DNA of 64,000 nucleotides, taken from NCBI GenBank assembly GCA_034429475.1, contig DAOUGD010000126.1:32818-96817 (forward strand). The letters are read 5' to 3'. Made by a program: the position numbers and the translations under genes. This document shows positions 1,058-60,656 of the stretch, piece after piece. The stretch's first letter is position 1. Every line of letters starts with the position of its first letter. The notes below the pieces were generated by a model that was not told where the DNA came from, ran no database searches, and saw only the letters and a program-made list of their open reading frames with translations. This stretch comes from Anaerolineae bacterium. Lineage in GTDB: Bacteria > Chloroflexota > Anaerolineae > B4-G1 > SLSP01.

Positions 1058-1771
1058 ATGCAAGCCATCAAACAGACCTCTCGTGAGGAAAAGCTATATC
1101 TTTACGGCAGTATCTACGTGCTACTCTCAACCATTATCTTTGGCGTTATCAACTATTTCACATGGTCGCCGGGGGTGGTTACAGAAGTATCTGCTCTTTT
1201 CTTGCTGTCCTGGATACCTTTATACCTGCCTATGATAGTTTTCAACCAATTCGCCGATTGGAGAGTCAGCGAATTTGGGTTTGTGGTAGATAAGCGGACG
1301 GGAATTGTGGCGGCGATTTCCTTGTTGTTTGGCGTATGGGTGTGTGTCAAAGAGCCGACGCTGTGGATGTTTGACCGAGGTTACTATTCTTTGATCGAAG
1401 CTTTTGCGCGTGTGGGGGAAGAACTATACTTCAGAGGGTTTATTTACCTCCTCGTACTCAAGCTCTTCAAAGCTGAAAAGAAGCCGTATATCTGGGCTAT
1501 CGTTCTATCCAGTATCGTATTTGCGGCGATGCACACGCAGACTTTTCTGCCAGAGTATGGTACATCCCTATTCTCCGTATTTTTATCGGCGCTACTCTTG
1601 GCGTACCTGCGCCACAAAACCGATTCATTACTGCCTGGTATAACAATACACAGCTTTCTCAAAGGGAGCTTGCTCGGGATACTGTTTGGCTGGGCCATTT
1701 ACGCACTTTTCGTGCTTTGGGACTACATCGAAAAGCGTCATATCGCGCAGATGAATCTGCCAATCCGCTGA
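1058..1771 (+). CDS. CPBP (CAAX protease / Abi) family intramembrane metalloprotease
   Basis: A 237-aa polytopic membrane protein with the CPBP signature motifs EELYFRG and FAAMH. GC by eye is ~46% against ~65% for the flanking genes. Confidence 0.7.
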   Translation: MQAIKQTSREEKLYLYGSIYVLLSTIIFGVINYFTWSPGVVTEVSALFLLSWIPLYLPMIVFNQFADWRVSEFGFVVDKRTGIVAAISLLFGVWVCVKEPTLWMFDRGYYSLIEAFARVGEELYFRGFIYLLVLKLFKAEKKPYIWAIVLSSIVFAAMHTQTFLPEYGTSLFSVFLSALLLAYLRHKTDSLLPGITIHSFLKGSLLGILFGWAIYALFVLWDYIEKRHIAQMNLPIR

Positions 1772-1816
1772 TCCGCCGATCCGCTTTCTTAACCTTTCAA
1801 AAAGGAGTCCATTTCC

Positions 1817-3424: not shown

Positions 3425-3943
3425 ATGGGTTTGTTAGGTAAGCGCGATATGGGATCCCCGCAGCAAATGCACCGGGTTCACATGGCGAATGATGTGCTCT
3501 GGCTTACCGGGGAAATGGAGACGTTGGGCAACCCACACAACTACATCAACCAGGATGGCCTGAATTTCATCCGCATCAGCAACCCCCACATCACTCCATG
3601 GGGCTTCACCGGTCTGCCGGCCAGTCATACGCCGTTACTCATTATGACGCGGGAGCGCACCCAGTTGATCATCTTCCCTGACCCGGCGACGCAAGAACAA
3701 TTCCGCCCGCCGATGAAGACGGAATCCTTGATCATCAACCTCTCGCTGGCTGTGATCCGGGGAAAAGTGCCGTTTCTGAGCGAGGCCCAGGTTCACAACT
3801 TCCTGGATTTCTGGAAGGGAATCTTCTTTCCGGTGATGGATGCTTCCTTGTACTTCTTGACCGATGGCCCGGCAGAGTTACCCGGCGAGTGTGCGCTGGT
3901 TTACGTCAACCGCAACCTGATTCAAAGTTACATCGGCGGGTAG
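3425..3943 (+). CDS. hypothetical protein
   Basis: A 172-aa ORF with a strong AAGGAGG RBS 6 nt upstream. No family motif was recognised. Confidence 0.45.
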   Translation: MGLLGKRDMGSPQQMHRVHMANDVLWLTGEMETLGNPHNYINQDGLNFIRISNPHITPWGFTGLPASHTPLLIMTRERTQLIIFPDPATQEQFRPPMKTESLIINLSLAVIRGKVPFLSEAQVHNFLDFWKGIFFPVMDASLYFLTDGPAELPGECALVYVNRNLIQSYIGG

Positions 3944-4313: not shown

Positions 4314-4345
4314 AGTGTAAAAGCGATTGGATGAAAAAAACTTTC

Positions 4346-4405
4346 TCAACGGATGTAACGGAATTTAACGGATATTTTCTCCGTTTAATCCGTTCAATCC
4401 GTTGA
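4346..4405. repeat. palindromic AACGGAT-unit element, copy A (TCAACGGAT-GTAACGGAAT-TTAACGGAT ... ATCCGTTTAATCCGTTCAATCCGTTGA)
   Basis: A full two-armed copy sits 20 bp upstream of mtnP. Family members are at 21270, 23441, 37805 and 44493. Confidence 0.75.
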
Positions 4406-4427
4406 GGCTATTTTCAGGGGAGGTTTT

Positions 4428-11327: not shown

Positions 11328-11356
11328 AAAGGTCGGTAGTTTTTCATCGGTAGATT

Positions 11357-11396
11357 GAGCAGATTAAGCAGGTTTTCGGCTTAATCTGCTCTTTTT
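11357..11396 (+). terminator. intrinsic terminator (13-bp stem GAGCAGATTAAGC / GCTTAATCTGCTC, then TTTTT)
   Basis: A perfect hairpin plus T-run after the STAND-HEAT gene. It overlaps the stop codon of the convergent parA-like gene. Confidence 0.55.
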
Positions 11397-14044: not shown

Positions 14045-14827
14045 CTACTGCGCCGCCTTTTTTTGCCTAGCGGCAAGGTCTTTCTTTGGGGTGTCTTTTT
14101 CTCCATTGCCGTCGGTCGAGGCAGGGAGATGGTAATGTCTGCGGAAAAGGAAGTATTGCAAGATGCTGACCAGGTTGGAGATCAGGAAGTAGACGGCCAG
14201 CCCCGACGCATACGTTGCTGAGAAGAAGCCCATCATCAAGGGCATCATAAGCAGCATTTGCTTGTTCATGGCCTCGGCCTGCGGGTCGGTGGCCGGCGGG
14301 GTGATGAGTTTTTGGCTGTACCAGGAGGTTAGCACCACCAGGATCGGCAGGATGAACAACGAATCAGGCAATGCCAGGTCGAGCCAGAGGAACTGACTCT
14401 TTAAGGGGATCAGGGTGTTGAAGCTCGCGGCCCAGGGGTAGATGTCTTTGGACAGTTCTAGCAGTTGTAGGGGCGTTGAGGCCAGCGAGCGGATGATGGC
14501 CTGATAGGCACCGAACATCAGGGGCAGTTGCAACAGCAATGGCAGGCAGCCGCCCAACGGATTGATGCCGGATTCTTGGTAGAGTTTCATTTGCTCCTGG
14601 GCCAGCTTTTCCCGGTCGTCCTTGTACTTGCGCTGAAGTTCATCCATCTTGGGCTTCATCTCTTGCTGGCGCCGCGCCATTTTTTGCTGGTTGAGCATCA
14701 GAGGCGTGATTGCCAGGCGGAGCAGCAAAGTGATGAGGGCCACCGCCACCATCGTTTCGTGTCCCAAGAAACTATAGAATAACAACAACAGGTTGATCAG
14801 CGGTCTAACTATGAGTGTATCCCACAC
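14045..14827 (-). CDS. yidC: YidC/Oxa1-family membrane protein insertase (short form)
   Basis: 260 aa, multi-TM, with a basic C-terminal tail and a conserved position in the rnpA-yidD-yidC-jag cluster. Confidence 0.8.
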   Translation of the reverse strand: MWDTLIVRPLINLLLLFYSFLGHETMVAVALITLLLRLAITPLMLNQQKMARRQQEMKPKMDELQRKYKDDREKLAQEQMKLYQESGINPLGGCLPLLLQLPLMFGAYQAIIRSLASTPLQLLELSKDIYPWAASFNTLIPLKSQFLWLDLALPDSLFILPILVVLTSWYSQKLITPPATDPQAEAMNKQMLLMMPLMMGFFSATYASGLAVYFLISNLVSILQYFLFRRHYHLPASTDGNGEKDTPKKDLAARQKKAAQ

Positions 14828-14949
14828 GGTCCTTCTCCTGTGAACGAGTAAGAAAGTAATGAGTAATGAGAAATGAGTTGTCGGAAACTTGCACTGGTTA
14901 CTCGTTACTCATTACTTATTTCTGATTTCCGTTTGTGACAGCGAATGGC

Positions 14950-17127: not shown

Positions 17128-18534
17128 TCAATTGCCGTTCGGAACTTTTTCCAGCCGTTGGGCAATGGCCCGCGCCGCGACCAATCCCGCCGCCGACGCT
17201 TGAATCAGGCCGCGCGTGATCCCCGCGCCATCCCCGCAGGCGAACAGATTGCGGACTTCGGTCTCCAATTCCTGGGTCAAGTGCAGACGATTGGAGTAGA
17301 ATTTGACCTCCACACCGTAGAGCAGGGTGTGGGGCGCGGCCACGCCCGGCGCAATCTGATCCATCGCATGCAGCATTTCGAGGATGTTTTTGACGTAGCG
17401 ATACGGCAGCACCAGGTTGAGGTCGCCAGGCGCTGCGCCGGGCAGGGTGGGCGTGACCACGGAGCGCGTCAGCCGTTCGACGGTCGAGCGCCGCCCGGCT
17501 TCCAGATCGCCGAGGCGCTGCACCATCACGCCGCCGCTGAGCAGATTCGCCAGTCGCGCGATGCTTTTGCCGTAGGTGATGGGATCGTCAAACGGCTCGG
17601 TGAAGTTCTTGCTGACCAGCAGGGCGAAGTTGGTATTGGCGGTGCGCCGGTCGGCAAACGAATGGCCGTTCACCGTCGTGACGTCCCCGGCAAACTCCGT
17701 GCTGACCTCGCCGTAGGGGCACATGCAGAACGTGCGGATCTGGTCGTCGAAGGCGCGCGAGTAATAGATGAACTTGGATTCGTAGACCAACCGGGTGATC
17801 GGTTCCAGCACGGCGGCAGGCAGTTCAACGCGCACACCCAGGTCTACTGGATTGCGCGTCAGCGTCAGGCGCAGCTCGCGCGCGATGCTCTCCAACCACG
17901 CGGAGCCTTCGCGTCCCGGCGCGGCGATGACCCTACCGGCTTCGAGGCGCTCGCCCTTGTCCGTCTCCACGCCGACAACTTGACCATTTTCGGTAAGGAT
18001 GCGGGCGACGGGGGTGCGGGTGCGGACGGTGACGCCGCGCGCCAGCAGGGCGTCGCGCATTGAACGCATCACGTTCTCGCAGCGCTCCGTACCGATGTGG
18101 CGGATCGGCACTGAGATCAGGCGCAGTCCGGCCAGCGCGGCTTTGTGTTCCAGCGCCTCGATCTCGTCGGTGTAGGTCCCGTAGACGGTTTTGGGCGCGC
18201 CGAACTGGCGATAGATGGCGTCCGCCTCGGCGATCAACTTGGCGGTAGCCTGCTCTCCCAGGATTTCGCCCAGATGCCCGCCGACCGCCGGCGAGAGGGT
18301 CAGCTTACCGTCCGAAAATGCCCCCGCGCCGCCCCAACCGTTGAGGATGGCGCACGGCTGGCAGTGTTTGCAGCCGCCTTTTCCCTCGCGGATGGGACAG
18401 CGGCGTTTGTCAATGTCGTGACCCTTGTCGAGGATAGCAATCCGTAATCCCGAATAACGACTCAACTCCAACGCGGCAAAAATCCCGGCCGGCCCCGCGC
18501 CAATAATGATGACGTCAAAGGTCTTTGTCTCCAT
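17128..18534 (-). CDS. FAD-dependent oxidoreductase (COG2509-like)
   Basis: An N-terminal dinucleotide-binding fold ([16 protein letters not shown]), 468 aa. Confidence 0.7.
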
Positions 18535-18561: not shown

Positions 18562-18593
18562 AGCGGATCAGCGGATCGGCGGATCAGCGGATC
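18562..18593. repeat. 8-mer tandem repeat (CAGCGGAT x4, one variant)
   Basis: Read directly from the sequence. Confidence 0.6.
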
Positions 18594-21269: not shown

Positions 21270-21299
21270 TCAACGGATTTAACGGATTCAACGGAAGGA
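21270..21299. repeat. AACGGAT-unit element, copy B (single arm: TCAACGGATTTAACGGATTCAACGGAAGGA)
   Basis: Belongs to the same family as the element at 4346. Confidence 0.6.
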
Positions 21300-21310: not shown

Positions 21311-21691
21311 TTACTTGAAGTCTTCAAGGAAGCGCACGACATTCATCATTTCATCGGCGGTGACGGAGTTCAGCAGGTTAAGCACGCGGCGCAGCAGTGT
21401 GCCACGATCCAGTTGGGCCGAGATGATCAGGCCATAAAAGGGTTTGCTCGCGTAGAAGTAGTCCGCAGCCATTTCGACAAAACGCCCGCCATCTTTGTCG
21501 TAGGTCAGAAAGGCGCGACCCTCGGCAGCCGCATAATCCCATTGCGCTTCGTCCGCCAAACCGGCGCGGTTGACTTCATAGACGTTCACGACGTCAAAGC
21601 CGTGCTCGCGCAGTTGGGCGGACAATTTGCTCCAGACATGTTCATCTATGTACAGCCGGATGTAAAGGGGATCGGTGACAGCGTCGCCCAC
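21311..21691 (-). CDS. DUF5615-family (PIN-like) putative toxin
   Basis: 126 aa with the pattern typical of DUF5615 partners of DUF433. It is 3 nt downstream of the DUF433 gene. Confidence 0.55.
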   Translation of the reverse strand: MGDAVTDPLYIRLYIDEHVWSKLSAQLREHGFDVVNVYEVNRAGLADEAQWDYAAAEGRAFLTYDKDGGRFVEMAADYFYASKPFYGLIISAQLDRGTLLRRVLNLLNSVTADEMMNVVRFLEDFK

Positions 21692-21694
21692 AGG

Positions 21695-22132
21695 TTATCT
21701 CCGCTGCCCGGTAATTCGCAGGTAATCTTCGGTGGAATTCATTCGCTCGCGGAGCTGCTGTCGGGCGGCGGCTTCGGTGGCTTCGGCTATTTCGTGGTCA
21801 ACTTCGTCGTGATGATCGTAGTAGTAGCTCAGGGCGTCATGCACATGGGCCGGCGTCAAGGCCGGATGGACTTCTTCGGCAAACGCCTCTGGCGCTAATC
21901 CCTGCTGGCTATAGCCCACGATGACGCTCACCGGCGTCCCGGATTCTTTTACTACGGCGCGTTTGCCCCAGGGAGATTGTTCCAGGGTGATATAGGGGTG
22001 TGTCGGCTGTAGCTCACGGCGTAATACCTCGTCGGCCAGTACATCCGGCGAGGAGGCGATTTGTTTGGCGCGCTGCGCCAGCAAGGTGTAGGTATAGGCG
22101 GATAGTTGAACGGTCATTGTCACTGTCATCAC
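21695..22132 (-). CDS. DUF433-family putative antitoxin
   Basis: The C-terminal DUF433 core (YITLEQSPWGKRAVVKESGTPVSVIV ... LTPAHVHDALSYY) is present. The N-terminal extension leaves the start uncertain. Confidence 0.55.
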   Translation of the reverse strand: MMTVTMTVQLSAYTYTLLAQRAKQIASSPDVLADEVLRRELQPTHPYITLEQSPWGKRAVVKESGTPVSVIVGYSQQGLAPEAFAEEVHPALTPAHVHDALSYYYDHHDEVDHEIAEATEAAARQQLRERMNSTEDYLRITGQRR

Positions 22133-23419: not shown

Positions 23420-23440
23420 GAGTGTACCTCCGAAAATAAC

Positions 23441-23494
23441 AGGATTTACGGAATGGTAGGATCAAAAATCCGTTTCAATCCGTTAAATCCGTTG
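23441..23494. repeat. AACGGAT-unit element, copy C
   Basis: The right arm ATCCGTTTCAATCCGTTAAATCCGTTGA is complete; the left arm is degenerate. Confidence 0.65.
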
Positions 23495-23767
23495 AGAGGA
23501 TTTTCGTTTGTCCTTAACTTTACTGCTTGATAGGCGAAACGTCAAATGCGGTGGGGGGACTGTAGCCGATTTTGTTGCTGGCAAAGTGAGAATAACGGCG
23601 GTCTGCGGTCTGTCGTCGGCGGTCAAAGTACATCAGGTAGCAACCCGAGTTACGTAATGTGATAAAATGCCCTCAGTATTTTTTATTCAAGCCGGCCTGA
23701 ATCTCTGGCCGACAACCCTCTGCCATACGCAGAGCGGCGCTAATCCACCATAGTAAGGAGGTTAACG

Positions 23768-28171: not shown

Positions 28172-28203
28172 TCGCTAAACGCGCTTAACCAACTTTTTCG
28201 GCC

Positions 28204-28240
28204 CTTCCCGGAAGTGGATTTGTCCATTTCCGGGAAGGGT
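28204..28240 (+). terminator. hairpin (12-bp stem CCCTTCCCGGAA / TTCCGGGAAGGG) after the protease gene
   Basis: A perfect inverted repeat with a weak T-tract. Confidence 0.4.
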
Positions 28241-28334
28241 GTGTATAGGGCGCGCAAGCTGATGGACCACGCCTGCTCAGCGGATTTTGCGACTGAAACC
28301 GCCGGTAAGAAGGGGGGGGGCGGGCGGTAGTTTG

Positions 28335-28362
28335 TTGACCTCCCTCCAAACCCCCGTATACT
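28335..28362 (+). promoter_or_regulatory. sigma70-like promoter TTGACC-16 bp-TATACT; a G-rich tract (G9-C-GGG-C-GG, ~28311-28327) lies just upstream
   Basis: Read directly from the sequence ~60 nt upstream of the TPR-AAA gene. Confidence 0.4.
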
Positions 28363-28420
28363 CTCACCCAACAGACTTTCAACTTTGAACTTGTAACTTT
28401 CGACTCTTATCGAGGAGCCT

Positions 28421-29836
28421 ATGGGTAAAAACGACGCAGTCATTCAAGCCTTGCGCACGGCGTTGACGGTGACGCCGGAATCGGCGCCGCTGCACAAGCA
28501 TCTGGCCGACTTGTTGATGGAGGACGGCGCGGGGGCGGAGGCGATTGCCGAATACCGCCGCGCCCTCAGCCTCGCGCCGGAGGATGACGGGTTGAAGTTG
28601 ACGCTCGCCGAGGCGTACTATCGCCAGTCGCGGGCGGACGTGGCGCTGGTGATTTTGGAGGAACTGCTGCACAAACCGTCACCGCCGGCGCTGGCGTATC
28701 TGCTGGCGGCGCGCGCCTACCTGGCGACCGGCGATGGGCAGACGGCGACGGACGCCTACCGGCATGCGCTGCGGCTGGATGCTTCGCTGGCCGACGCCGA
28801 CCTGGCCGCGCGGTTGCCCGCTGCGACGCCCGTCACGGTCAAGCCGGAATCCGCCGTGTCGGGGACGGTGTTGGACGTGGCTGCCGGTGGCGTCCCCGTT
28901 GCGGACGACGCACGGGTGTTCGTCACGGCGGAGGAATCCGGCGGACCGCCCGCGGTGGACATCGAGCGCCCGACCGTCTCGTTCCAGAACGTGGGGGGGA
29001 TGGATAAGCTGAAGGAAGAAATCCGCCTGAAAATCATCTACCCGCTCGTCCACCCGGACATTTACAAGGCTTACGGCAAGAAGATGGGCGGCGGCATTTT
29101 GATGTACGGGCCGCCCGGCTGCGGTAAAACGTACCTGGCGCGGGCCACCGCCGGGGAAGTGCGCGCCGCGTTTATGGCCGTCGGCCTACACGACGTGCTG
29201 GATATGTACATCGGCCAGAGCGAGCAGAATTTGCACGCGATCTTCGAGGCGGCGCGGCGTCACGCGCCCTGCGTGCTGTTCTTTGATGAAGTGGACGCCC
29301 TCGGCGCGAAGCGTTCCGATATGCGCTACAGTTCGATGCGGCAGGTCATCAATCAGTTCCTCTCCGAGATGGACGGTGTGACCACGTCGAATGAAGGCGT
29401 GTTGATTCTGGCCGCCACCAACGCGCCGTGGCACCTCGATTCGGCGCTGCGCCGGCCGGGGCGGTTTGACCGGGTGATCTTCGTACCGCCGCCGGACGTG
29501 CCCGCGCGCGCCGCCATCCTGCAATTGATGCTCGCCGACAAGCCCACGCAGTCCATTGACTACGGGCGGCTGGCGCGCGAGACGGAGGGCTTCTCCGGCG
29601 CGGACTTGCGCGGCATCGTGGACGTGGCCGTCGAGGGCAAGCTGCGCGTGGCGATGCAGACCGGCATCCCCAAGCCGCTGACGACGGACGACCTGCGGGC
29701 CGCCCTCAAAGCCGCGCGCGCCACCACCCAGGAATGGTTCGAGACCGCCCGCAACTACGCCATCTACGCCAACGAAGGCGGCACTTACGATGAGGTGCTG
29801 GACTATTTGAAGGTGGCGCGGAAGGGAAAGTTGTGA
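28421..29836 (+). CDS. TPR-repeat AAA+ ATPase (CDC48/FtsH-type ATPase module)
   Basis: N-terminal TPRs with canonical Walker A (GPPGCGKT) and Walker B (VLFFDEVDAL). Confidence 0.75.
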   Translation: MGKNDAVIQALRTALTVTPESAPLHKHLADLLMEDGAGAEAIAEYRRALSLAPEDDGLKLTLAEAYYRQSRADVALVILEELLHKPSPPALAYLLAARAYLATGDGQTATDAYRHALRLDASLADADLAARLPAATPVTVKPESAVSGTVLDVAAGGVPVADDARVFVTAEESGGPPAVDIERPTVSFQNVGGMDKLKEEIRLKIIYPLVHPDIYKAYGKKMGGGILMYGPPGCGKTYLARATAGEVRAAFMAVGLHDVLDMYIGQSEQNLHAIFEAARRHAPCVLFFDEVDALGAKRSDMRYSSMRQVINQFLSEMDGVTTSNEGVLILAATNAPWHLDSALRRPGRFDRVIFVPPPDVPARAAILQLMLADKPTQSIDYGRLARETEGFSGADLRGIVDVAVEGKLRVAMQTGIPKPLTTDDLRAALKAARATTQEWFETARNYAIYANEGGTYDEVLDYLKVARKGKL

Positions 29837-29845
29837 GACGAACTG

Positions 29846-29902
29846 CGAATTACGAATTACGAATTACGAATTACGAATTGCGAATTGCGAATTGCGAATT
29901 AC
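29846..29902. repeat. 8-mer tandem repeat (CGAATTAC / CGAATTGC x7)
   Basis: Read directly from the sequence. A similar array is at 60582-60646. Confidence 0.7.
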
Positions 29903-29920
29903 GTGCTGAGGTAGGCAACG

Positions 29921-33346: not shown

Positions 33347-33406
33347 GGGGATCAGGGATTAGGGATTGGGGTGGCCCGATCCTTAATTTCTAATCCCCGC
33401 CACTAT
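33347..33406. repeat. GGGATTAGGG palindromic element, copy 1
   Basis: GGGGATCAGGGATTAGGGATTGGGG ... CCTTAATTTCTAATCCCCGCCACTAT. A second copy is at 35950. Confidence 0.65.
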
Positions 33407-35725: not shown

Positions 35726-35740
35726 CTGGTTGCGAGTCGC

Positions 35741-35779
35741 AAAAACGGCTTCCCTTACTCCAAGGGAAGCCGTTTTTTT
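35741..35779 (+). terminator. intrinsic terminator (AAACGGCTTCCC-loop-GGGAAGCCGTTT + T7)
   Basis: A perfect 12-bp stem followed by TTTTTTT. Confidence 0.75.
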
Positions 35780-35806
35780 GACGCGCGTTCATCCGTGTGG
35801 TATACT
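35778..35806 (+). promoter_or_regulatory. sigma70-like promoter TTGACG-17 bp-(TGG)TATACT overlapping the terminator T-run
   Basis: Extended -10 with TGn; read directly from the sequence. Confidence 0.4.
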
Positions 35807-35814
35807 CCTCTGAA

Positions 35815-35893
35815 AATAAAGACTATTTCACGCAAAGGCGCAAAGACGCAAAGTAAAAAACAAGAACTTGGCGAGCTTGGCGTCTTTGCGTGA
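35815..35893 (+). ncRNA. candidate structured small RNA / leader
   Basis: A long hairpin with ~17-bp stem (ATTTCACGCAAAG(GCGCAAAG)ACGC ... GCGTCTTTGCGTGAAAT) and CGCAAAG x3 sits just downstream of the predicted promoter. There is no coding capacity. Confidence 0.25.
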
Positions 35894-35949
35894 AATTTTC
35901 ATTCGACCGCTGGTGAACGGCCGGTTAATGATGAATTCCCTTGAAAATT

Positions 35950-36005
35950 GGGAATGGGGATTAGGGATTAGGGATTGGGTACCCCCAATCCCTAATCCCC
36001 ACTAT
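35950..36005. repeat. GGGATTAGGG palindromic element, copy 2
   Basis: GGGAATGGGGATTAGGGATTAGGGATTGGGT ... CCCCAATCCCTAATCCCCACTAT. Confidence 0.65.
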
Positions 36006-36073
36006 CTAATCCTCCCGTGTTTTACGTTTTACGAAATGGGGTAGATAGTGTGCTCCCCAGATTGGAGTATCTG

Positions 36074-37804: not shown

Positions 37805-37861
37805 CTCAACGGATTCAACGGATTTGAACGGATTTTTCCGTTAAATTCGTTAAATCCGTTG
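37805..37861. repeat. AACGGAT-unit element, copy D (full, both arms)
   Basis: TCAACGGATTCAACGGATTTGAACGGAT-TTTT-CCGTTAAATTCGTTAAATCCGTTGA. Confidence 0.75.
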
Positions 37862-37884
37862 AGATATTGTTATGGAGGGAGACT

Positions 37885-38847
37885 ATGCGAGTGTTGGTGA
37901 CCGGCGCGGCGGGATTTATCGGAAGTAATCTAGCGGAAACGCTGCTGCGACGCGGCGATACGGTGGTGGGGCTGGATAATTTCTGCGACTATTACAGCCC
38001 GGCGCGCAAACGCGCCAACGCAGCGGTCCTGGCGGCTTATCCTGCCTTTACGCTGCACGAGCTGGACCTGCGCGACGAAGCCGGTGTGGCGCGCGTCATC
38101 GCGGAGGGCGTCTTCGACGCGGTGGCGCACCTGGGCGCGTTGGCGGGTGTGCGCTATTCTATCGAGCGCGCGCCGCTCTACACCGACGTGAACATCCGGG
38201 GCACGGTCAACGTGCTGGAGGGGATGCGCCACGCCGGGACGCCGCACATCGTCTTTGCCTCAACCTCGTCGGTTTATGGCAAGACGGAGCGACTACCTTT
38301 TAAAGAAGACGATCCCCTCGGCCAACCGTTGGCGCCCTATCCGGCCAGTAAAATCGCCGGGGAGTTGATGGGCTACACGTATCACAATCTCTTCAAGCTA
38401 TCCTTCACGGCGGTGCGCTTCTTCAGCGTCTACGGCCCGCGCGGGCGCCCCGATATGATGCCCTACACCATCACCGACAGCATTGTGCATGACAAATCTT
38501 TCAAGCTGTTCAACGCGGGCGAGATGTACCGCGACTGGACCTACGTGGGCGACATCGTCCAGGGCCTCATCGCCGCGCTGGAACGCCCGTTGGATTACAT
38601 CCGCCTGAACCTGGGGCGCGGCGAGCCGGTGCGCATGGCCGACTTCGTCACCCTGGTGGAGAAGCTGGTGGGCAAGTCCGCGCGGATGGAGACGCCGCCC
38701 GCCCCCGCCAGCGAGCCGCCCATCACCTACGCCGACATCACCCTGGCGCGTAATCTGCTCGGCTACGATCCGCACGTCTCCGTAGAAGAAGGGATGACGC
38801 GGTTCTGGGAGTGGTATCAGCGTGAGGCGTTAGGAGTGGCGAGTTAG
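37885..38847 (+). CDS. NAD-dependent epimerase/dehydratase (extended SDR, UDP-sugar 4-epimerase-like)
   Basis: GGAGGGAG RBS, a VLVTGAAGFIGSNL Rossmann motif and YxxxK. Confidence 0.75.
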   Translation: MRVLVTGAAGFIGSNLAETLLRRGDTVVGLDNFCDYYSPARKRANAAVLAAYPAFTLHELDLRDEAGVARVIAEGVFDAVAHLGALAGVRYSIERAPLYTDVNIRGTVNVLEGMRHAGTPHIVFASTSSVYGKTERLPFKEDDPLGQPLAPYPASKIAGELMGYTYHNLFKLSFTAVRFFSVYGPRGRPDMMPYTITDSIVHDKSFKLFNAGEMYRDWTYVGDIVQGLIAALERPLDYIRLNLGRGEPVRMADFVTLVEKLVGKSARMETPPAPASEPPITYADITLARNLLGYDPHVSVEEGMTRFWEWYQREALGVAS

Positions 38848-38884
38848 GAGTTAGTGCTGAGGACTGAGTGTTGAGGACTGAGTC
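38829..38884. repeat. left copy of an inverted repeat flanking the ammonia-lyase gene (coordinates +/-1)
   Basis: GTTAGGAGTGGCGAGTTAGGAG ... GCTGAGGACTGAG. It overlaps the last codons of the epimerase and is followed by 7-8-mer repeats (CGCTGACT / CGCTTTTT) running into the ATG. Confidence 0.6.
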
Positions 38885-38930
38885 TTCGTTGACTCGCTGA
38901 CTCGCTGATTCGCTTTTTCGCTTTTTCGCT

Positions 38931-40469
38931 ATGGAAACGATCATCATCACCGGTGAACATTTGACGATGGAGGATGTGGCCGCCGTGGCGGGGGGGGCGC
39001 GGGCGACGTTGGCGCCTTACGCGGCGGAGGCGATGGCGCGGTCGTGGGCGGGCGTGCAGACGCTCCTGGCGCACGGCGAGATCGCTTACGGGATCACGAC
39101 GGGCTTCGGCGCATTCAAGGGTCGCATCATTCCGCTGCACGAGGTGGCGGCGTTGCAGCGCAATCTGGTGTTGAGCCACGCGGCAGGCGTCGGGCCAGCG
39201 TTGGACGAGCGGACGGTGCGCGCGGTGATTGCGGTGCGTGTCAATACGCTGGCGATGGGCTATTCCGGCATCCGCCCACAGACGGCGGAGGCGCTGCTGG
39301 CGCTGTTGAACGCCGGCGTCACGCCGGTGATTCCGGCGTATGGCTCGCTGGGCGCCAGCGGCGATCTGGCCCCGCTGGCGCATCTCGCGTGCGTCCTCAT
39401 TGGCGAGGGCGAGGCGTGGTATGGCGGCGAGCGACTGCCCGGCGGCGTGGCGCTGCGCCGTGCCGGATTGACGCCGGTGGAACTTGGCGCGAAGGAAGGG
39501 CTGGCCCTGATCAACGGCACGGCGGTGACGACGGCCCTGGGCGCGCTGGTGGAGTTGCGGACCGAGAATCTCATCCGCGCCGCCGACATCGCGGGCGCGC
39601 TCTCGCTGGAGGCGTTGCGCGGCACCGTCGCCGCCTTCGACCCGCGCCTGCACTTCGTCCGCCCGCACCCGCGCCAGGTGGACGCGGCGGCGTACATGCG
39701 GCGCATCCTCGCCGGCAGCACGTTCGTCCGCCCCCACGATCCCCGCGACATTCAGGACGCCTATAGCTTGCGGTGCATCCCCCAGGTTCACGGCGCGGTG
39801 CGCGACACAGTGGCCTATGCGCGCTGGGCGCTGGAAATCGAACTCAACGCGGTGACGGATAATCCGTTGATTTTCTTCGACGCGGAAGGCCGCCCGGAGG
39901 TGCTGTCGGGCGGCAATTTCCACGCCGAGCCGGTAGGGCTGGCGCTGGATTACCTCAAGCTGGGGATGGTGGAACTGGGCAACATCAGCGAGCGGCGCAC
40001 GGCCCGGCTGGTGGACGAGGCGCTGAGCAACGGCCTGCCGCCGTTCCTCACGCGCTACGGTGGGCTGGAAAGCGGCTTTATGCTCGCGCAGTACACGGCG
40101 GCGGCGCTGGCCTCGCAGAACAAGGTGCTGGCGCATCCGGCCACGGCGGACTCGATTCCCACGTCCGCCAATACCGAGGATCACGTCAGCATGGCGACCA
40201 ACGCGGCGCACAACACCCGGCAGGTGGTGGACAACGTCGAGTGCATCGTCGCGGTGGAATTGTTGGCAGCCGCGCAGGGGATTGACTTGCGCCGCGCGCA
40301 GTTAGGGCGGACGGCGCAGTTGGGCAAGGGCACGGCGGTGGCCTACGAAGCCGTGCGCTCCTGCGCGCCCTTCCTGGAACACGACGCCCCGCTCGCGCCG
40401 CTGATCGAATCCGTGCGCGCCCTCATCGCCGGCGGAGAGCTGGTGAAAGCCGTGGACGCGGCGGTGTGA
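38931..40469 (+). CDS. MIO-dependent histidine/aromatic-amino-acid ammonia-lyase
   Basis: GSLGASGDLAPLAHLA carries the Ala-Ser-Gly MIO triad, 512 aa. No hutU or hutI is nearby, so substrate is unassigned. Confidence 0.8.
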   Translation: METIIITGEHLTMEDVAAVAGGARATLAPYAAEAMARSWAGVQTLLAHGEIAYGITTGFGAFKGRIIPLHEVAALQRNLVLSHAAGVGPALDERTVRAVIAVRVNTLAMGYSGIRPQTAEALLALLNAGVTPVIPAYGSLGASGDLAPLAHLACVLIGEGEAWYGGERLPGGVALRRAGLTPVELGAKEGLALINGTAVTTALGALVELRTENLIRAADIAGALSLEALRGTVAAFDPRLHFVRPHPRQVDAAAYMRRILAGSTFVRPHDPRDIQDAYSLRCIPQVHGAVRDTVAYARWALEIELNAVTDNPLIFFDAEGRPEVLSGGNFHAEPVGLALDYLKLGMVELGNISERRTARLVDEALSNGLPPFLTRYGGLESGFMLAQYTAAALASQNKVLAHPATADSIPTSANTEDHVSMATNAAHNTRQVVDNVECIVAVELLAAAQGIDLRRAQLGRTAQLGKGTAVAYEAVRSCAPFLEHDAPLAPLIESVRALIAGGELVKAVDAAV

Positions 40470-40602
40470 AGAGGGGGAGAGGAGGAGAGGAGGAGAGGGG
40501 GAGAGGGGGAGACTCAGTCCTCAGTCCTCAGCACTCAGCACCCCTAACTCGCCACTCCTAACTCCTAACTCCTAACTCCTAACTCCTATTTCCTATTTCG
40601 CT
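40470..40602. repeat. composite repeat block: (GGAGA/GGGGA)n purine array, right inverted-repeat copy (40511-40570), then CTAACTC x5 and CTATTTC x2 heptamers ending at the ATG
   Basis: Read directly from the sequence. Its reverse complement matches the block at 38829-38884. Confidence 0.65.
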
Positions 40603-43238: not shown

Positions 43239-45971
43239 ATGAAAATTCTGCGAGAAAACTTTTTCCGTCAGTGGGCCGCGCCGGTAGGCGTGATGGGGTC
43301 GGCAGTGGCGCTGATCTACCGACGGTTGATCGCTGGTCAGGTGTTGGCCGGCGGCGACTTGCATCTGTATTTTTTCCCCTATTGGATGGCGGCGGCGCGG
43401 TCGTTCCTGGCCGGGAAGCTGCCCCTGTGGACGCCTGATCTGTTTGCGGGGGCGCCACTGCTGGCAAACTCGCAGATCGGCGTATTTTACCCCCTGAACT
43501 GGCCGTTGTGGTGGTTGTCGGGCGGCTCGTTGCTGGGGGTGACGCGCGCCCTGCACATCAGCGTGCTGCTGCATCTGGCGCTGGCGGCGCTGACAGCGTG
43601 TGTGTTGGCCCGGCGGGTGGGCGCTGCACCGTGGGGCGCAGCGCTGGCAGGACTGCTTTATGCCGGCGGCGGTTACCTGGGTCTGCACGTCGAACACTTG
43701 AACCAGTTGCAGGGATTGGCCTGGCTGCCCTTGGTGCTACTGCCGGGGCAAAAGGCGCAGTTTCACGTTTTGCGTTTCACGTTTCACGTTTCATTCCCCT
43801 CGCCTATAAGCATCATCGCCCTGACCCTTATGCTCCTGGCCGGTCACACCCAAATGGCCTTTATGGCCGGCGTCGGCCTTCTTGTCTGGAAAGCGGTGGA
43901 CTGCGGTTTCTGGAGCTTAGGGAATCGTTATTCCGTTTCTCGCGTGTCCTATTCCCTATTTCCTATTTCCTATTTCCTGTCCTTGCTTCCCTATGCCCTG
44001 GCCCCCTTGATCGCCGCCGTGCAACTGTTGCCCACCCTTGAGTTAGCGCAGTTTTCGCTTCGCAGCAGCGGTCTGCCGTGGCGGGAGGCGGTGTCGTTCT
44101 CCATCCGCCCGTGGGATTTGCCGGAAGCGTTGCTGCCGACTTATCTGGTCACGCCGCTGCTGCCGGAAGGTGTCGCCTACCTGGGGCTGGTGGGGATGGC
44201 GTTGGCGGCGTGGGGGGCGTGGCGGGGGCTGCGCCGCCGTGATAGGGACGCTTGGGCGGTGGTTGTGCTGGCCGGGGTGGGGGTGTTCCTGGCTCTGGGC
44301 GCTTACAACCCCCTGTATTTGGCGGCGATACGTCTGGGGATACCGGGCTTGATTCACTTCCGCGCTCCGGCGCGCTTCCTGGTGCTGTACACGCTGGGGA
44401 TGGCGCTGCTGGCCGGGCGTGGTTTCTCTGAGCTGCCGGAATTGTTGGGTGAGCTGCGGGGGCTTCTTTTTCGTCAGCAGATTAGAACGGAAGGCGGGGA
44501 TCAACGGAATACAACAGAAATCCCAAAAATCCGTTCAAATCCGTTCAATCCGTTGATACATTTGATCGGGGGTATCACAATCGTCCTGGCTTGCGTCGAA
44601 CTGTTGATTTCCTCCGCTTCCCTGCCGCACGCCGACGCGACGGCGGCGCGCGCTTACACCGACCTGCGCCCGGCGACCGCGCATCTGGTGGCGGCGACGC
44701 AAGCGGCATTGGCGGGCGAATGGCCGGGACGCTTTCTCAGTATTTCCAAGACGCTTTTCGACGCCGGGGACGAGGTGGACATGACGGCCATTTACGGGGA
44801 CGCGCTTTCGGCGGATGCCCTGTGGCAGTACAAGGTAGCGGCCAAACACCGAGAAGTGCTGTCGCCCAACCTGGCGTTGGCGTTTGGCGTCCCGGCGGCG
44901 GATGGCTACGATGGCGGCCTGCTGCCGTTGCGGCACTACAGCGCTTTCTCGCAGTTGATGTTGCCCGACGGCACGCTGGATGGCCGGCTGCGAGAGAATC
45001 TGACGAGCATCCCGGAAGCGCGCTGGCTTTCCCTGTTGGACGTGCGCTTCGTGATGACCGACAAGACCGGCGATGCCTGGGTGGAGGACGTGTTTTACGA
45101 CCGGCAATTTCAGCCGGCGCTAGCCGCTGACGCGTCGTTGTCGTTGGGATGGTTGCCGGACGATTTCACTGCCGATGCGTTGGGCCTGTTGTATGCCGGT
45201 GCCGGTAACGTCACGTTGACGTTGGGAGATGGGCGCGCGCTCACCGCAACGCTACCGGCTCAGGTGGCCGAGTCGCCGTATCGTGTGCGATGGGTTGCCG
45301 CCGCTCGCGTGACCGGCGTGACCTTGCAGGCCTCCACCCCCGGTTTGACGTTAACCGGCGCCAGTCTGTTAGACGAGCGGGCCGCCGCTTTCTATCCTCT
45401 GACGCTTTCAGCGCATTTCCGGCTGGCTCATTCCGGCGATGTGAAGATTTACGAGGCATTGGCGCCGTCATCCCGCGTATTCTGGACGCCGACCTATACG
45501 TGTGTGGCCGACGATGCGGTGGCGCTGGCGGTGATGCGCGATCCGGCTTTCGATCCGACGACAAACGCGGTCGTGCAGGGCTGTGAGGGCGGCGAGAGCG
45601 TGGCCGAGGAGGGCGGCGCGGCAGACATCCGGCTCATCCGGCGCAGCGCTACCGAGGTGCGGCTGGCCGTTACGACGCCCACGTCCGGCCTGTTGACCCT
45701 GGCTGAGGCGTGGTATCCCGGCTGGCAGGCGCGGGTGACTTCGGAAACGAACGACCTACTGTTCACATCGGTACTACAGGTGGATATTCTCTTTCGCGGG
45801 GTGCGGTTAGGGCCGGGAAACTGGTGGGTTACTTTTGCCTATCGGCCTCACGGATTGTTGGTGGGCGGCTGGCTCAGTTTAGTGGGCATGGCGGGATTCG
45901 GCGGGTATGCCGTGCGCTTGCGGCGAAGGCGCGGGACTGCTGCGTTAGAACCTTCTGACATATCATCGTGA
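43239..45971 (+). CDS. YfhO-family polytopic membrane protein (putative glycosyltransferase)
   Basis: The N-terminal YfhO-like pattern (LYFFPYW ... LWTPDLFAGAPLLANSQIGVFYPLNW) and many TM helices support this. The 910-aa ORF is intact despite three in-frame repeat insertions. Confidence 0.7.
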   Translation: MKILRENFFRQWAAPVGVMGSAVALIYRRLIAGQVLAGGDLHLYFFPYWMAAARSFLAGKLPLWTPDLFAGAPLLANSQIGVFYPLNWPLWWLSGGSLLGVTRALHISVLLHLALAALTACVLARRVGAAPWGAALAGLLYAGGGYLGLHVEHLNQLQGLAWLPLVLLPGQKAQFHVLRFTFHVSFPSPISIIALTLMLLAGHTQMAFMAGVGLLVWKAVDCGFWSLGNRYSVSRVSYSLFPISYFLSLLPYALAPLIAAVQLLPTLELAQFSLRSSGLPWREAVSFSIRPWDLPEALLPTYLVTPLLPEGVAYLGLVGMALAAWGAWRGLRRRDRDAWAVVVLAGVGVFLALGAYNPLYLAAIRLGIPGLIHFRAPARFLVLYTLGMALLAGRGFSELPELLGELRGLLFRQQIRTEGGDQRNTTEIPKIRSNPFNPLIHLIGGITIVLACVELLISSASLPHADATAARAYTDLRPATAHLVAATQAALAGEWPGRFLSISKTLFDAGDEVDMTAIYGDALSADALWQYKVAAKHREVLSPNLALAFGVPAADGYDGGLLPLRHYSAFSQLMLPDGTLDGRLRENLTSIPEARWLSLLDVRFVMTDKTGDAWVEDVFYDRQFQPALAADASLSLGWLPDDFTADALGLLYAGAGNVTLTLGDGRALTATLPAQVAESPYRVRWVAAARVTGVTLQASTPGLTLTGASLLDERAAAFYPLTLSAHFRLAHSGDVKIYEALAPSSRVFWTPTYTCVADDAVALAVMRDPAFDPTTNAVVQGCEGGESVAEEGGAADIRLIRRSATEVRLAVTTPTSGLLTLAEAWYPGWQARVTSETNDLLFTSVLQVDILFRGVRLGPGNWWVTFAYRPHGLLVGGWLSLVGMAGFGGYAVRLRRRRGTAALEPSDISS
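43760..43794. repeat. 7-mer tandem repeat (TTCACGTTT units) inside the YfhO-family CDS
   Basis: Read directly from the sequence. It encodes FHVLRFTFHVSF in-frame. Confidence 0.6.
43947..43982. repeat. 7-mer tandem repeat (CTATTTC x4) inside the YfhO-family CDS
   Basis: It encodes SLFPISYFLS in-frame. The same heptamer occurs in the intergenic block at 40586-40600. Confidence 0.6.
44493..44548. repeat. AACGGAT-unit element, copy E, inserted in-frame in the YfhO-family CDS
   Basis: TCAACGGAATACAACAGAAATCC-CAAAA-ATCCGTTCAAATCCGTTCAATCCGTTGA. It translates as ...DQRNTTEIPKIRSNPFNPLI... Confidence 0.65.
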
Positions 45972-59367: not shown

Positions 59368-60591
59368 ATGGCGACGTGGGGTTGGTTGGTTATCATCGCG
59401 GTAGTGCTGGCGGTGGCTGGCGGCGTGGTGGCGTGGCAGTGGCGGCGCGTTCAGGCGCTGCTGGCCCAACAGCACCTATTGGAACGGCGCATAGCCGAGC
59501 TAATGGACGTCCAGACGACAGAACGGCAGCACTTGACGCAGCAGGCTGAAGCCTTTGCGCAGCGCCTGGAGCGTTTCCGGGCGGCAGCGCTGGTGGCGCG
59601 GGATGCCGCCGCCATTCGTAACTTGGACGAATTGATGCAGGCGTTGGTGACGCTGATCTCGCAGCGCTTCGACTTTTATCATGCCGGGGTGTTCTTGTTG
59701 GATGATGCCGGCGACTTCGCGGTGATGCAGGCGGCGTCATCCGAAGGGGGGCGGCAAATGCTGGCGCGGGGACACAAACTGCGGGTGGCCGAGCAGGGGA
59801 TCGTGGGGTACGTGGCGGCGCGGGGGGAAGCGCGCATTGCCCTGAACGTCGGCGAGGACGCGGCCTGGGCCAGCGCGCCGGAACTGCCGAAAACTCGCTC
59901 AGAGATGGCGCTGCCTTTGAAGGTGCGCGAGCAGGTCATTGGCGTGCTGGACGTGCAGTCTACCGAACCGCAAGCCTTTATCCAGGAGGACATTGAAGTA
60001 CTCCAAACAATGGCCGATCAGTTAGCCTTGGCGATTCAGAGCGCGCGGCTGTTTGAGGAAAACCGGCGCACCGTCGAGCGGTTGGAGATCCTGTACCGGG
60101 AGCAGATGGGGGAAATATGGCGCAGCCGGGTCGGCACGCGCACCTACATCTACGATGGCCTGAACGTCGCGCGCGCGCTGGCGGAGGAGACGCCGGCGTT
60201 GGTCAATAGCCAGCACGTGGTCACGTCACACCAGTTGGTCATCCCGATCTTCCTGCGCGAGCACGTCATCGGTTCGATCACCCTGGAACGCGATCCGATA
60301 CAACTGCCCTGGTCGGATGAAGAGGTGGCGTTGGTGGAAGAGATCGGCGTGCAGGCCGGCCTGGCGCTGGACAATGCACAGTTGTTGGCCGACAGCCGGC
60401 AGCGCGCGACGTACCAGCAGCAGCTCAGCGACGTGTCACGGGTCTTTTCCGGGGCCGTGAACATGGAAGCAATGTTGCAGGCCGCCGTGCGTGAGTTGGG
60501 GCGGCTGCCGGGGGTGGCGGAGGTGGCCGTCCACATTGACGCTCCCCGCGCCGTTGCGAATGACATTGAGCAAGCGGCGAATGACGAATAG
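59368..60591 (+). CDS. single-TM coiled-coil GAF, GAF protein without output domain (paralog 6)
   Basis: N-terminal TM (WGWLVIIAVVLAVAGGVVAW), a coiled coil, GAF (FDFYHAGVFLLDDAGDFAVMQAASS ... LPLKVREQVIGVLDVQS), a second GAF and a C-terminal VRELGRL module. Confidence 0.65.
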   Translation: MATWGWLVIIAVVLAVAGGVVAWQWRRVQALLAQQHLLERRIAELMDVQTTERQHLTQQAEAFAQRLERFRAAALVARDAAAIRNLDELMQALVTLISQRFDFYHAGVFLLDDAGDFAVMQAASSEGGRQMLARGHKLRVAEQGIVGYVAARGEARIALNVGEDAAWASAPELPKTRSEMALPLKVREQVIGVLDVQSTEPQAFIQEDIEVLQTMADQLALAIQSARLFEENRRTVERLEILYREQMGEIWRSRVGTRTYIYDGLNVARALAEETPALVNSQHVVTSHQLVIPIFLREHVIGSITLERDPIQLPWSDEEVALVEEIGVQAGLALDNAQLLADSRQRATYQQQLSDVSRVFSGAVNMEAMLQAAVRELGRLPGVAEVAVHIDAPRAVANDIEQAANDE

Positions 60592-60646
60592 CGAATTACG
60601 AATGACGAATAACGAATTACGAATCACGAATTGTGAATTTCGGATG
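60582..60646. repeat. 8-mer tandem repeat (CGAATNAC variants x8) spanning the stop codon of paralog 6
   Basis: Read directly from the sequence. It belongs to the same family as the array at 29846. Confidence 0.65.
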
Positions 60647-60656
60647 AGGCAGGTCA

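Follow-up and report, generated by a model that had tools for sequence, protein, structure and literature searches.

AACGGAT-unit palindromes, a candidate REP- or MITE-like repeat family in gene spacers of the class Anaerolineae

Five AACGGAT arrays in the window and the genes beside them

The 64,000-nt stretch of contig DAOUGD010000126.1 (Anaerolineae bacterium, GCA_034429475.1), hereafter the window, contained five short arrays built from AACGGAT units, most of them arranged as palindromes of about 60 nt. All five arrays reported in a preliminary description of the sequence were located, and the neighbouring genes that it had named (mtnP, an FGGY kinase gene with a DUF433/DUF5615 pair, a LarA-like DUF2088 gene and an epimerase gene) were confirmed. 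Genes were called with a self-trained codon-usage caller, which is crude but matched the database gene calls for the window. The sequence AACGGAWT was found 20 times, compared with 3.7 ± 2.0 expected from dinucleotide shuffles, none of which reached 20, and 16 of the 20 matches belonged to the five clusters; likewise, TCAACGGA was found 11 times against 2.0 in the shuffles. The plain hexamer AACGGA was not enriched in the whole window (37 versus 30), indicating that the signal lies in the clustering of units. The numbers of ACGGA/TCCGT cores within 25-nt steps were 6, 3, 4, 5 and 5 at copies 1 to 5, respectively, and a relaxed three-unit tandem pattern detected eight arrays in the window and none in 27 of 30 Markov simulations.

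Two of the copies were full palindromes (copies 1 and 4), two had one decayed arm (copies 3 and 5), and one was a half (copy 2); all except copy 2 were recorded without a strand. Copy 1 (4345-4406) consisted of three AACGGA units facing three inverted ones (CTCAACGG...CCGTTGAG), located 31 nt 3' of the stop of a 116-aa open reading frame (ORF) and 21 nt 5' of the mtnP ATG (4428). Copy 2 (21270-21295, plus strand) was a single arm (TCAACGGATTTAACGGATTCAACGGA), with the stop of the minus-strand DUF5615 gene, which ends at 21311, on one side and the start of the FGGY kinase gene (21173) on the other. Copy 3 (23438-23495) combined an intact arm (23466-23495) with a decayed arm (23438-23465) that reads AACAGGATTTACGGAATGGTAGGATC; on the minus strand, TCAACGG... 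comes first, then the decayed arm and GGAGG, after which the LarA-like/DUF2088 gene begins at its ATG (23419). This copy would be part of a 5' untranslated region (UTR) if transcription started from a weak promoter-like site at 23545-23517. Copy 4 (37805-37863) occupied the whole RecJ-epimerase spacer, in which a stop (37792) was followed by the element, GGAGGG and the ATG at 37885, and the middle unit of its right arm was degenerate (ATTCGTT). In copy 5 (44473-44556), the decayed left arm began with GTCAGCAGATT at 44473, and the right arm was intact with three ATCCGTT units. The boundary sequences that had been ascribed to both ends of every copy were missing from the right end of copy 2 and, as TCAACGGA, from the left side of copy 3.

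Four copies were intergenic or upstream of genes, as had been described, and copy 5, whose location had been left unstated, was found within a gene. It lies in frame in a gene encoding a YfhO-family membrane protein (43239-45971, 910 codons), where it encodes ...RQQIRTEGGDQRNTTEIPKIRSNPFNPLI..., and this ORF is genuine: its homologues are full-length at about 900 aa, and PF09586 was present in several of them. Copy 5 occupied one of three hypervariable loops (local coding score -2.7), at which homologues either lacked about 50 residues or had low-complexity inserts of other kinds. The 89%-identical relative (L241/P0002; L and P numbers denote loci and proteins from other assemblies) had an intact right arm (IRSNPFNPL) and a different left part. 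The other two loops contained in-frame heptamer arrays, GTTTCAC x4.9 (43760-43793) and TCCTATT x4.6 (43947-43978), where homologues carried other repeat-encoded low-complexity peptides, such as the SAVSRQPSAISDQR repeats of P0023.

Family anatomy, distribution and spacer context

A complete copy is an imperfect palindrome of 57-70 nt, consisting of [C/G]TCAACGGAT, two further (A)AACGGAT units, an A/T-rich loop of 4-15 nt, and three inverted units, with unit steps of 9-10 nt. Each arm spans about 25 nt, and the units form direct and inverted sets, not head-to-tail heptamers. The termini ([C/G]TCAACGG...CCGTTGA[G/C]) were fully paired, and the palindromic symmetry ended 2-3 nt outside CAACGG in 34 full copies. 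Family membership was demonstrated; an alignment of 25 sequences yielded the consensus CTCAACGGATTnAACGGATTAAACGGAT, loop, AATCCGTTnAAATCCGTTnAATCCGTTGAG, and two subfamilies could be recognized. Subfamily A (CTCAACGG...CCGTTGAG) is about 61 nt in length with a short A/T loop and includes the window copies, and subfamily B (GTCAACGG...GAAAAGAAAAA...CCGTTGAC) is about 69 nt. Steps of 9 nt accounted for 76% of all unit steps in the family, a value inflated by the search pattern, and steps of 10 nt for 15%. Accordingly, the earlier statement that the units lie on one helical face is only approximate, as most steps fall below one helical turn.

The family was searched for in one genome per species (pattern AACGGATTNAACGGATT, 596 Gb), which gave at least 116 loci, and in metagenomes with a stricter pattern (TCAACGGATTNAACGGATT), which gave at least 120 loci. 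Cross-phylum matches of the genome scan were discounted, as most single matches were at chance level (by arithmetic, 16 fixed bases should match about 280 times in 596 Gb). Among the metagenome matches listed, there were about 97 non-redundant arrays of at least three units, representing both subfamilies. The multi-unit and palindromic matches of the genome scan were concentrated in Anaerolineae, Anaerolineales, Caldilineaceae, Thermoflexus, and unnamed Chloroflexota metagenome-assembled genomes (MAGs); carriers included MAGs of the genera Caldilinea (L039) and Thermoflexus (L020). The window was 100% identical to contig CAYXJK010000001.1 of GCA_964465495.1 and to JGI metagenome contigs. The nearest named relative was 'Chloroflexota bacterium USDE_metabat.60' (JAKQHY..., 96.6% identity over 5.9 kb), followed by an 'Anaerolineae bacterium' MAG (DAOQTV..., 89% identity). 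Copy 1 was 92% identical over 76 nt to L027, with unrelated flanks, and the asymmetric variant represented by copy 3 was also located 5' of unrelated genes in L059, L106, L194 and L207. Copies at different loci had idiosyncratic spacer bases in common, and such near identity at unrelated loci indicates copying rather than independent origin.

Only 12 of the 97 arrays (about 88% being outside) were inside ORFs, compared with 84% of the DNA being coding (p about 2e-54). Among the 64 intergenic arrays with both neighbours called, the flanking genes were co-directional in 52, divergent in 8 and convergent in 4 cases, and a gene start adjoined the array in 60. The intergenic bias was strong and the bias toward positions upstream of genes was weak. 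Facing stop codons were within 10 nt in 18 of 72 cases, and the modal distance to the facing start was 11-30 nt, so a typical spacer reads stop, a few nucleotides, element, 10-20 nt with GGAGG (Shine-Dalgarno), and ATG. In half arrays, TCAACGGATT read with transcription, i.e., UCAACGGAUU in the mRNA, in 20 cases against 6 (p = 0.009). The neighbours were unrelated housekeeping genes (e.g., mtnP and genes for the FGGY kinase, the LarA-like protein, the epimerase, ProRS, IspD, ABC ATPase, and asparaginase), and no protein family recurred beside the arrays beyond large paralogous families. Since the largest neighbour clusters were ABC ATPases and aldo/keto reductases, a recurrent neighbour acting as a transposase or regulator was rejected.

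The full copies formed strong hairpins on RNA folding. The RNA folds of copies 1, 4 and 3 had energies of -31.8 (z -7.9), -36.2 (z -8.8) and -18.8 kcal/mol (z -3.3), respectively; copy 1 as DNA gave -20.5 (z -8.5), the full copies as single-stranded DNA gave z scores from -7.5 to -8.8, and copy 2, a half, was unstructured alone. The hairpins are long and interrupted, their arms being inverted copies with 92.8% of the alignment cells paired. A structure backed by covariation had no real support in the alignment: 13 of 27 pairs never varied, and the sole convincing double change, at terminal pair 2-74 (CG in 12 and GC in 9 sequences), corresponds to the split between subfamilies A and B. Moreover, the variable spacer positions were unpaired in 15 of 25 and 11 of 25 sequences, and the complementarity of spacers between arms was at chance (8 of 40 versus 7.6 expected). 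Therefore, the helix follows from the mirrored invariant units and constitutes no independent evidence of selected base pairing.

These folds and positions bear on a role after transcription, either as an intercistronic hairpin that stabilises or insulates mRNA or as an ACGGAU (GGA) platform for an RNA-binding protein tuning downstream translation. GGA motifs are targets of CsrA-type proteins. The location of the arrays 11-30 nt 5' of starts, directly before the Shine-Dalgarno sequence and often straight after a stop, the strong RNA folds and the 20:6 orientation bias of half arrays are all consistent with such a role, as is a promoter-like site (35778-35806) that would place the repeat modules before recJ in a 5' UTR. 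An analogous proposal has been made for TAACTGA repeats 5' of starts (PMC4679880). Nevertheless, the GGA motifs are buried in the stem of the full palindrome, covariation is limited to one terminal pair with spacer complementarity at chance, the elements are dispensable at orthologous genes (see below), and one copy is in coding sequence. The whole window had no Rfam match at the gathering score, and at permissive E-values copies 1 and 4 gave only sub-threshold, generic matches to hairpins of eukaryotic miRNA precursors. We assign this role a small yet appreciable probability.

Long hairpins, often followed by a U-rich stretch (GCUAUUUUC, ACAUUUU) and, in subfamily B, often preceded by an A-rich stretch, would also be expected of intrinsic, possibly bidirectional, terminators or attenuators. 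The intrinsic terminator scan called none of the copies, a consequence of their A/T-rich stems and offset T-run. In addition, copies were located in a divergent promoter region (copy 3), inside a gene (copy 5), and in tight operon-like spacers, in which a terminator would shut off the gene that follows. Termination is therefore a very unlikely function of the elements.

Turnover between relatives and the nature of the elements

Comparison of orthologous spacers revealed frequent differences between relatives. At the site of copy 1, L244/L245 contained (GAACGTTT)x5 between flanks that were each 90-95% identical, L246/L247 (MtnP 88% identical) had a tail of the copy 3 type in the mtnP leader, and L248-L250 (MtnP 75% identical) had yet another sequence. 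In L251, copy 3 was kept 5' of the LarA-like gene (protein 94% identical), and copy 2 and the DUF433/DUF5615 pair (a putative toxin-antitoxin pair, window 21311-22117) were absent, so that the LarA-like and FGGY genes were separated only by other repeat modules. The pair beside copy 2 looks like a recent insertion or deletion. Copies 2 and 3, whose inverted arms lie 2.2 kb apart around this pair and the LarA-like gene, were considered as the ends of a transposon; this was rejected, as L251 has copy 3 and the LarA-like gene without the pair or copy 2, and the two copies are not a single mobile unit. Arm pairs 0.3-4 kb apart had between them either ordinary genes (ProRS; the LarA-like gene together with the toxin-antitoxin pair) or nothing.

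At the orthologous RecJ-epimerase spacer of L241 (89% nucleotide identity), copy 4 had three substitutions, all in the arm on the Shine-Dalgarno side. The spacer between the TPR gene and yfhO contained a full element in this relative and 125 nt of unrelated sequence in the window. In L099 (96.6% identical), the stop at 29836 was followed by TCAACGGATTAAACGGATTGAACGGAA, an AACGGATT array, in place of the (ACGAATT)x9.4 of the window (29838-29903). Of the more distant syntenic relatives, L271 had other arrays (GAATCAGC, CTCGTTAC) in the same spacers, including in place of copy 4, and L273 had plain spacers of 20-35 nt. These differences demonstrate turnover, and the elements are therefore dispensable, lineage-specific and quickly exchanged. 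Decay was concentrated in the arm beside the Shine-Dalgarno sequence, which suggests selection against sequestering the ribosome-binding site. Contigs of other assemblies started or ended inside arrays (L119, L246/L247, L099, and L242/L243), at the sites of copy 1, the mtnP leader, the array after 29836 and the arrays at 40.5 kb, as expected for multi-copy repeats. The ENA contig L251 began, at 1-37, with an apparent Illumina adapter sequence (AGGCGTGACTGGAGTTCAGACGTGTGCTCTTCCGATCT), an assembly artefact.

The preliminary description had preferred a regulon signal made of binding sites for one DNA-binding protein. In this reading, a dimeric or oligomeric protein would bind the phased units and co-regulate the downstream genes; in a variant, the arrays would be loading sites for a nucleoid-associated protein. 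The AACGGA core is invariant across the class while the spacers vary, direct and inverted units are combined at 9-10 nt steps, and a gene start adjoins most intergenic arrays, all of which would suit binding by a protein. However, the downstream genes are functionally unrelated, the array is absent or swapped at orthologous genes (mtnP, with a different array in the relative; L251; the plain spacers of L273), and one copy is coding. The window copies leave only about 20 nt, including the Shine-Dalgarno sequence, before the ATG and hence no room for a downstream promoter, which indicates that most copies are within transcripts rather than at promoters. Helical phasing had been taken to favour protein binding, but it cannot be general, as the units of sister families with like architecture measure 7 or 8 nt, and by arithmetic 9-nt steps drift by about 50 degrees per unit. 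Operator function is the reading least compatible with the comparative data, and its probability is low. For the same lack of room before the ATG, an outward -35 box in the terminal TTGAC(A) was rejected for the window copies, and promoter prediction called no promoter at copy 1. Integron attC sites were also rejected by reasoning, as the core sites do not match GTTRRRY and the flanks are housekeeping genes.

The arrays might instead have arisen in place by slippage and hairpin-templated repair, with favoured units recurring, as in the short tandemly repeated repetitive (STRR) sequences, which are heptamer tandem arrays of heterocystous cyanobacteria. In the 64 kb, Tandem Repeats Finder identified 35 arrays in which a unit of 7-10 nt was repeated at least 2.7 times, about 27 of which lay in or edged the 8% intergenic sequence, and 12 of 28 spacers had at least one array. 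Furthermore, relatives differed by whole-unit steps, arrays of 6-11 units were found (L176, L189, and L263), and the unit variants form a graded series from AACGGAT through AGCGGAT and AGCAGAT to ATTCGTT. Against this, independent origin cannot explain why about 100 unrelated loci, spread over many genomes, have an identical 7-nt core and identical termini, near-identical whole copies with their asymmetries recur at non-orthologous loci, and whole-module replacement at 4-10% divergence is too fast for point mutation and slippage. We consider a purely local origin unlikely.

On balance, the elements probably represent a small, non-autonomous and dispensable repeat family of the class Anaerolineae (Chloroflexota), similar to repetitive extragenic palindromic (REP) sequences and REPINs or to miniature inverted-repeat transposable elements (MITEs), and are best read as behaving like selfish repeats and not as a regulatory signal. 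This agrees with the mobile palindrome that the preliminary description had offered as the first of its two options, in view of the roughly 100 dispersed copies, the exclusion from ORFs, the unrelated neighbours and the gain, loss and replacement at orthologous sites; its interpretation as a whole is thus partly supported. Copies are located in probably transcribed spacers, i.e., intercistronic gaps and 5' leaders just 5' of the ribosome-binding site, and occasionally in frame in insertion-tolerant coding loops. Even between closely related genomes they are gained, lost or exchanged for other modules, and they afterwards decay, usually first in the arm on the Shine-Dalgarno side, to leave half arrays. 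In the mechanism that we propose, spread would probably occur by transposition at the DNA level. A host-encoded, single-strand HUH/Y1 enzyme (RAYT-like) that reads the hairpin and the invariant AACGGA units may be responsible, as the long single-strand hairpin and the lack of target duplication favour such an agent, and persistence of the core in one class fits RAYT-like spread. The host would mostly tolerate the element, and any effect on it may be generic, as that of an intercistronic mRNA hairpin, rather than gene-specific regulation.

Several observations weigh against this reading. No consistent direct repeat that would mark a target-site duplication flanked the 34 full copies, and A-rich flank matches of 4-6 nt were found in only about 3 of 12 subfamily B copies. 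No transposase or RAYT gene adjoined the arms in about 1.8 Mb of loci, the whole source genome not having been scanned, and no insertion sequence partner with the element ends was found among the loci examined. Copies 3, 4 and 5 were retained at orthologous sites in L241 (aligned DNA about 86-89% identical) and L251. Relatives did differ at orthologous spacers, but always by module replacement, with no clean pair of filled and empty sites found for the AACGGAT family, a pattern that might stem from some hotspot process and not from transposition. The invariant core with variable spacers would also be expected from a conserved host binding protein. Finally, the dozen families of unrelated units with a common three-plus-three-inverted design (see below) hint at a mechanism that is independent of sequence.

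The last point leads to a more radical reading, in which the palindromes are the most visible product of a dedicated spacer-writing process in filamentous Anaerolineae. Short units of many sequences would be written, as direct or three-plus-three-inverted arrays, specifically into the interval that separates the ribosome-binding site from the transcription start or from a stop codon, swapped like cassettes between close strains, and used as platforms for an RNA- or DNA-binding protein (e.g., a GGA reader) that sets translation or mRNA fate, a process perhaps shared with Bacteroidota and Cyanobacteria. We regard this as quite unlikely; if true, it would be a new kind of repeat-generating mechanism and not a classical transposon.

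Among known systems, MITEs (e.g., Correia/NEMIS of Neisseria, ERIC, RUP, and the cyanobacterial Nezha) consist of two terminal inverted repeats and a short loop, and are intergenic, co-transcribed and variable between strains. The AACGGAT element likewise has terminal inverted repeats and a short loop, is intergenic and differs between relatives, but it lacks a consistent target-site duplication and, at about 60 nt, is shorter than most MITEs. The heptads of the ω repressor of pSM19035 and the ParR/parC iterons belong to one replicon, on which a linked gene encodes the protein that binds them at a few promoters or centromeres. Their short direct and inverted units at roughly helical spacing resemble those described here, whereas AACGGAT copies are scattered beside unrelated chromosomal genes and are dispensable. 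Rickettsia palindromic elements (named in PMC3733652) offer a further comparison. They are 100-150 nt in length and differ from the AACGGAT family in that the sequences are unrelated and the intragenic AACGGAT copies are a minority (about 12%); in-frame insertion into a coding region, tolerated as a peptide, is the feature they have in common with copy 5.

REP sequences, bacterial interspersed mosaic elements (BIMEs) and REPINs, mobilised by RAYT transposases of the Y1 HUH type (PMC3116915, PMC3733652), are likewise short, imperfect, high-copy and extragenic palindromes that are located in operon spacers, co-transcribed and occasionally intragenic, with no target-site duplication, long vertical persistence and single-strand hairpins. 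Unlike these, in which an unpaired GTAG/CGTC head stands at a stem of 5-13 bp and the repeats flank a usually single-copy RAYT gene, the terminal [C/G]TCAACGG is paired here, the arms are three tandem units of 9-10 nt, and no arm-flanked RAYT was found among the loci examined. As the GTAG/CGTC head is absent, the likeness to REPINs claimed here is one of working in a similar manner and not of membership.

TAACTGA direct repeats of Beggiatoaceae, Cyanobacteria and Bacteroidetes are located just 5' of the starts of unrelated genes, with no known mechanism (PMC4679880), and are the closest published analogue of the array population in the window; neither 'Chloroflex' nor 'Anaerolin' occurs in the main text of that paper. 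Similar to STRR and TAACTGA repeats, the present arrays are short-unit intergenic arrays of filamentous bacteria, near starts, with whole-unit differences between strains and incoherent downstream functions. They differ in having units of 9-10 nt instead of 7, three of them facing three inverted, and in keeping a normal Shine-Dalgarno sequence; head-to-tail heptamers are absent from AACGGAT arrays and present in other arrays of the window.

The family is apparently previously undescribed: dimers of the unit had no match in the full texts searched, there was no Rfam model, and nothing relevant was found on repeats of Anaerolineae. Its unusual traits are the hairpin arms of tandem units, the in-frame coding insertions and the module swapping at fixed spacer positions. 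Members of the Anaerolineae are filamentous, abundant and for the most part uncultured, and their non-coding DNA is essentially uncharted. The family accounts for assembly breaks at particular spacers, could serve as a fast-evolving marker to distinguish strains, and warns that some annotated 'low-complexity loops' (e.g., in YfhO) are repeat insertions. Together with STRR and TAACTGA repeats, it extends the link between a filamentous lifestyle and repeat-packed spacers to a third or fourth phylum, and adds an unusual architecture of tandem units mirrored into a hairpin. Should an enzyme, RAYT-like or otherwise, prove to read tandem-unit hairpins, the substrate range of such enzymes would be wider than is known.

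Other short-unit arrays and minor observations

AACGGAT is the commonest of about a dozen families of short-unit (7-10 nt) arrays in the spacers. The three-plus-three-inverted design was also found with the unrelated units AGTAATG, GGGATTA and CGCAAAG, and with CACGGAGA in L251. The AGTAATG palindrome, (AGTAATG)x3, loop, (CATTACT)x3, was located at 14854-14923, in the spacer that precedes gene 14045-14827, and its RNA fold had an energy of -29.4 kcal/mol (z -6.1); L244 kept it and had one additional 7-nt unit close by. GGGATTA formed a palindrome in the recJ leader (35951-36012, fold -37.8 kcal/mol) and an array at 33348-33371, was conserved in L241, and had matches at other loci of a relative (L027, L044). 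The CGCAAAG palindrome (35829-35903) was within a 131-nt segment (35818-35948) that is not in L241. This segment was flanked by the 7-nt direct repeat TGAAAAT (35811 and 35942), the only clean indel with a duplication-like flank that was seen. Further upstream, at 35732-35806, a MamF-like gene was followed by a terminator-like hairpin (GCAAAAACGGCTTCCCTT...AAGGGAAGCCGTTTTTTT) and directly afterward by the strong promoter-like site mentioned above (TTGACG, 17 nt, TGnTATACT).

Two spacers consisted entirely of arrays of heptamers and octamers, namely 38848-38930 (AGGAGTT, CTGAGGA, TCGCTGAC, and TTCGCTTT) and 40470-40602 (AGAGGGGG, CTCAGTC, CCTAACT, and TCCTATT). In both, the arrays reached the ATG without a Shine-Dalgarno sequence and ended with TTTCGCTATG. 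The arrays flanking the aromatic-lyase gene (38931-40469) were mutually reverse complementary (about 38835-38885 versus 40510-40590) and were conserved in L241 with changed unit numbers. Direct arrays directly after stops included, besides (ACGAATT)x9.4 at 29838-29903, a CGAATAA-like array (x7.7) at 60578-60647.

Three arrays were related to the AACGGAT units by their cores. At 1756-1784 (minus strand), GCGGAT-core units, one of which was GCAGA, with an 8-nt period overlapped the end of gene 1058-1771. At 18563-18591 (plus strand), (CAGCGGAT)x4 with an 8-nt period was located just 5' of gene 17128-18534, which starts at 18534 on the minus strand. The array at 11344-11372 (plus strand), found by eye, comprised GTAGATT, GAGCAGATT and AAGCAGG units (CAGATT-type) with a 9-nt period, and its variant unit was that of the decayed arm of copy 5; L244 had GTCAGCAGATTGAGCAGATTAAGCAGATG at this site.

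The sequence GGCTATTTTCAGGGGAGG, which follows copy 1 as well as copies in L020 and L027, was considered as a tail of the element. It was rejected because it was kept at element-less mtnP orthologues and also stood at gene 3425 without an element, which indicates a native, common ribosome-binding context. A leader motif, (G)GCTATTTTYAGRGGAGG, was observed directly 5' of the starts at 3425, 4428 and 23419 in the window and in L020, L027, L246 and L248, and is probably the preferred ribosome-binding context of the clade.

Outside Chloroflexota, direct-then-inverted AACGGAT arrays were observed in Bacteroidota/Chitinophagales (L001, L051, and L080), Gemmatimonadaceae (L072), Binatia (L003), and Cytophagia (L057), loci that were selected by the pattern and from which no frequency can be judged. 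Viral contigs contained only giant-virus or coding 9-nt tandem repeats, with no palindromes. MITE-like elements were found in Hymenobacter (L015, L016, L031, L041, L064, and L104, two of these loci being labelled as a Janthinobacterium MAG), with inverted ends of about 50 nt containing the same units (CCGCAGATTTAACGGATTTAACGGATTGCGCAGATACGCC and a small hairpin), which bracket 100-450 nt of variable sequence. A conserved 115-aa ORF with no Pfam match forms this interior in two genomes, and the elements had no clear target duplication. Units of 9 nt with CGGATT and CAGATT thus recur across phyla. In L209 (1987-2160), compared with L139, a 119-nt indel between two AACGGATTGAACG repeats contained a GTAG-tagged REP doublet (GTAGGGGGTGGAGC...; ...CACCCCTAC), so that some genomes have classical REPIN-like elements alongside AACGGAT arrays.

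Finally, the leader of gene 28421 (28172-28420) contained a good promoter-like pair recognized by eye (TTGACC, 17 nt, TATACT) followed by an ACTTTCA/ACTTTGA array, and L099 had ATCYGCT units, a degenerate AACGGAT-type arm, at the same site.

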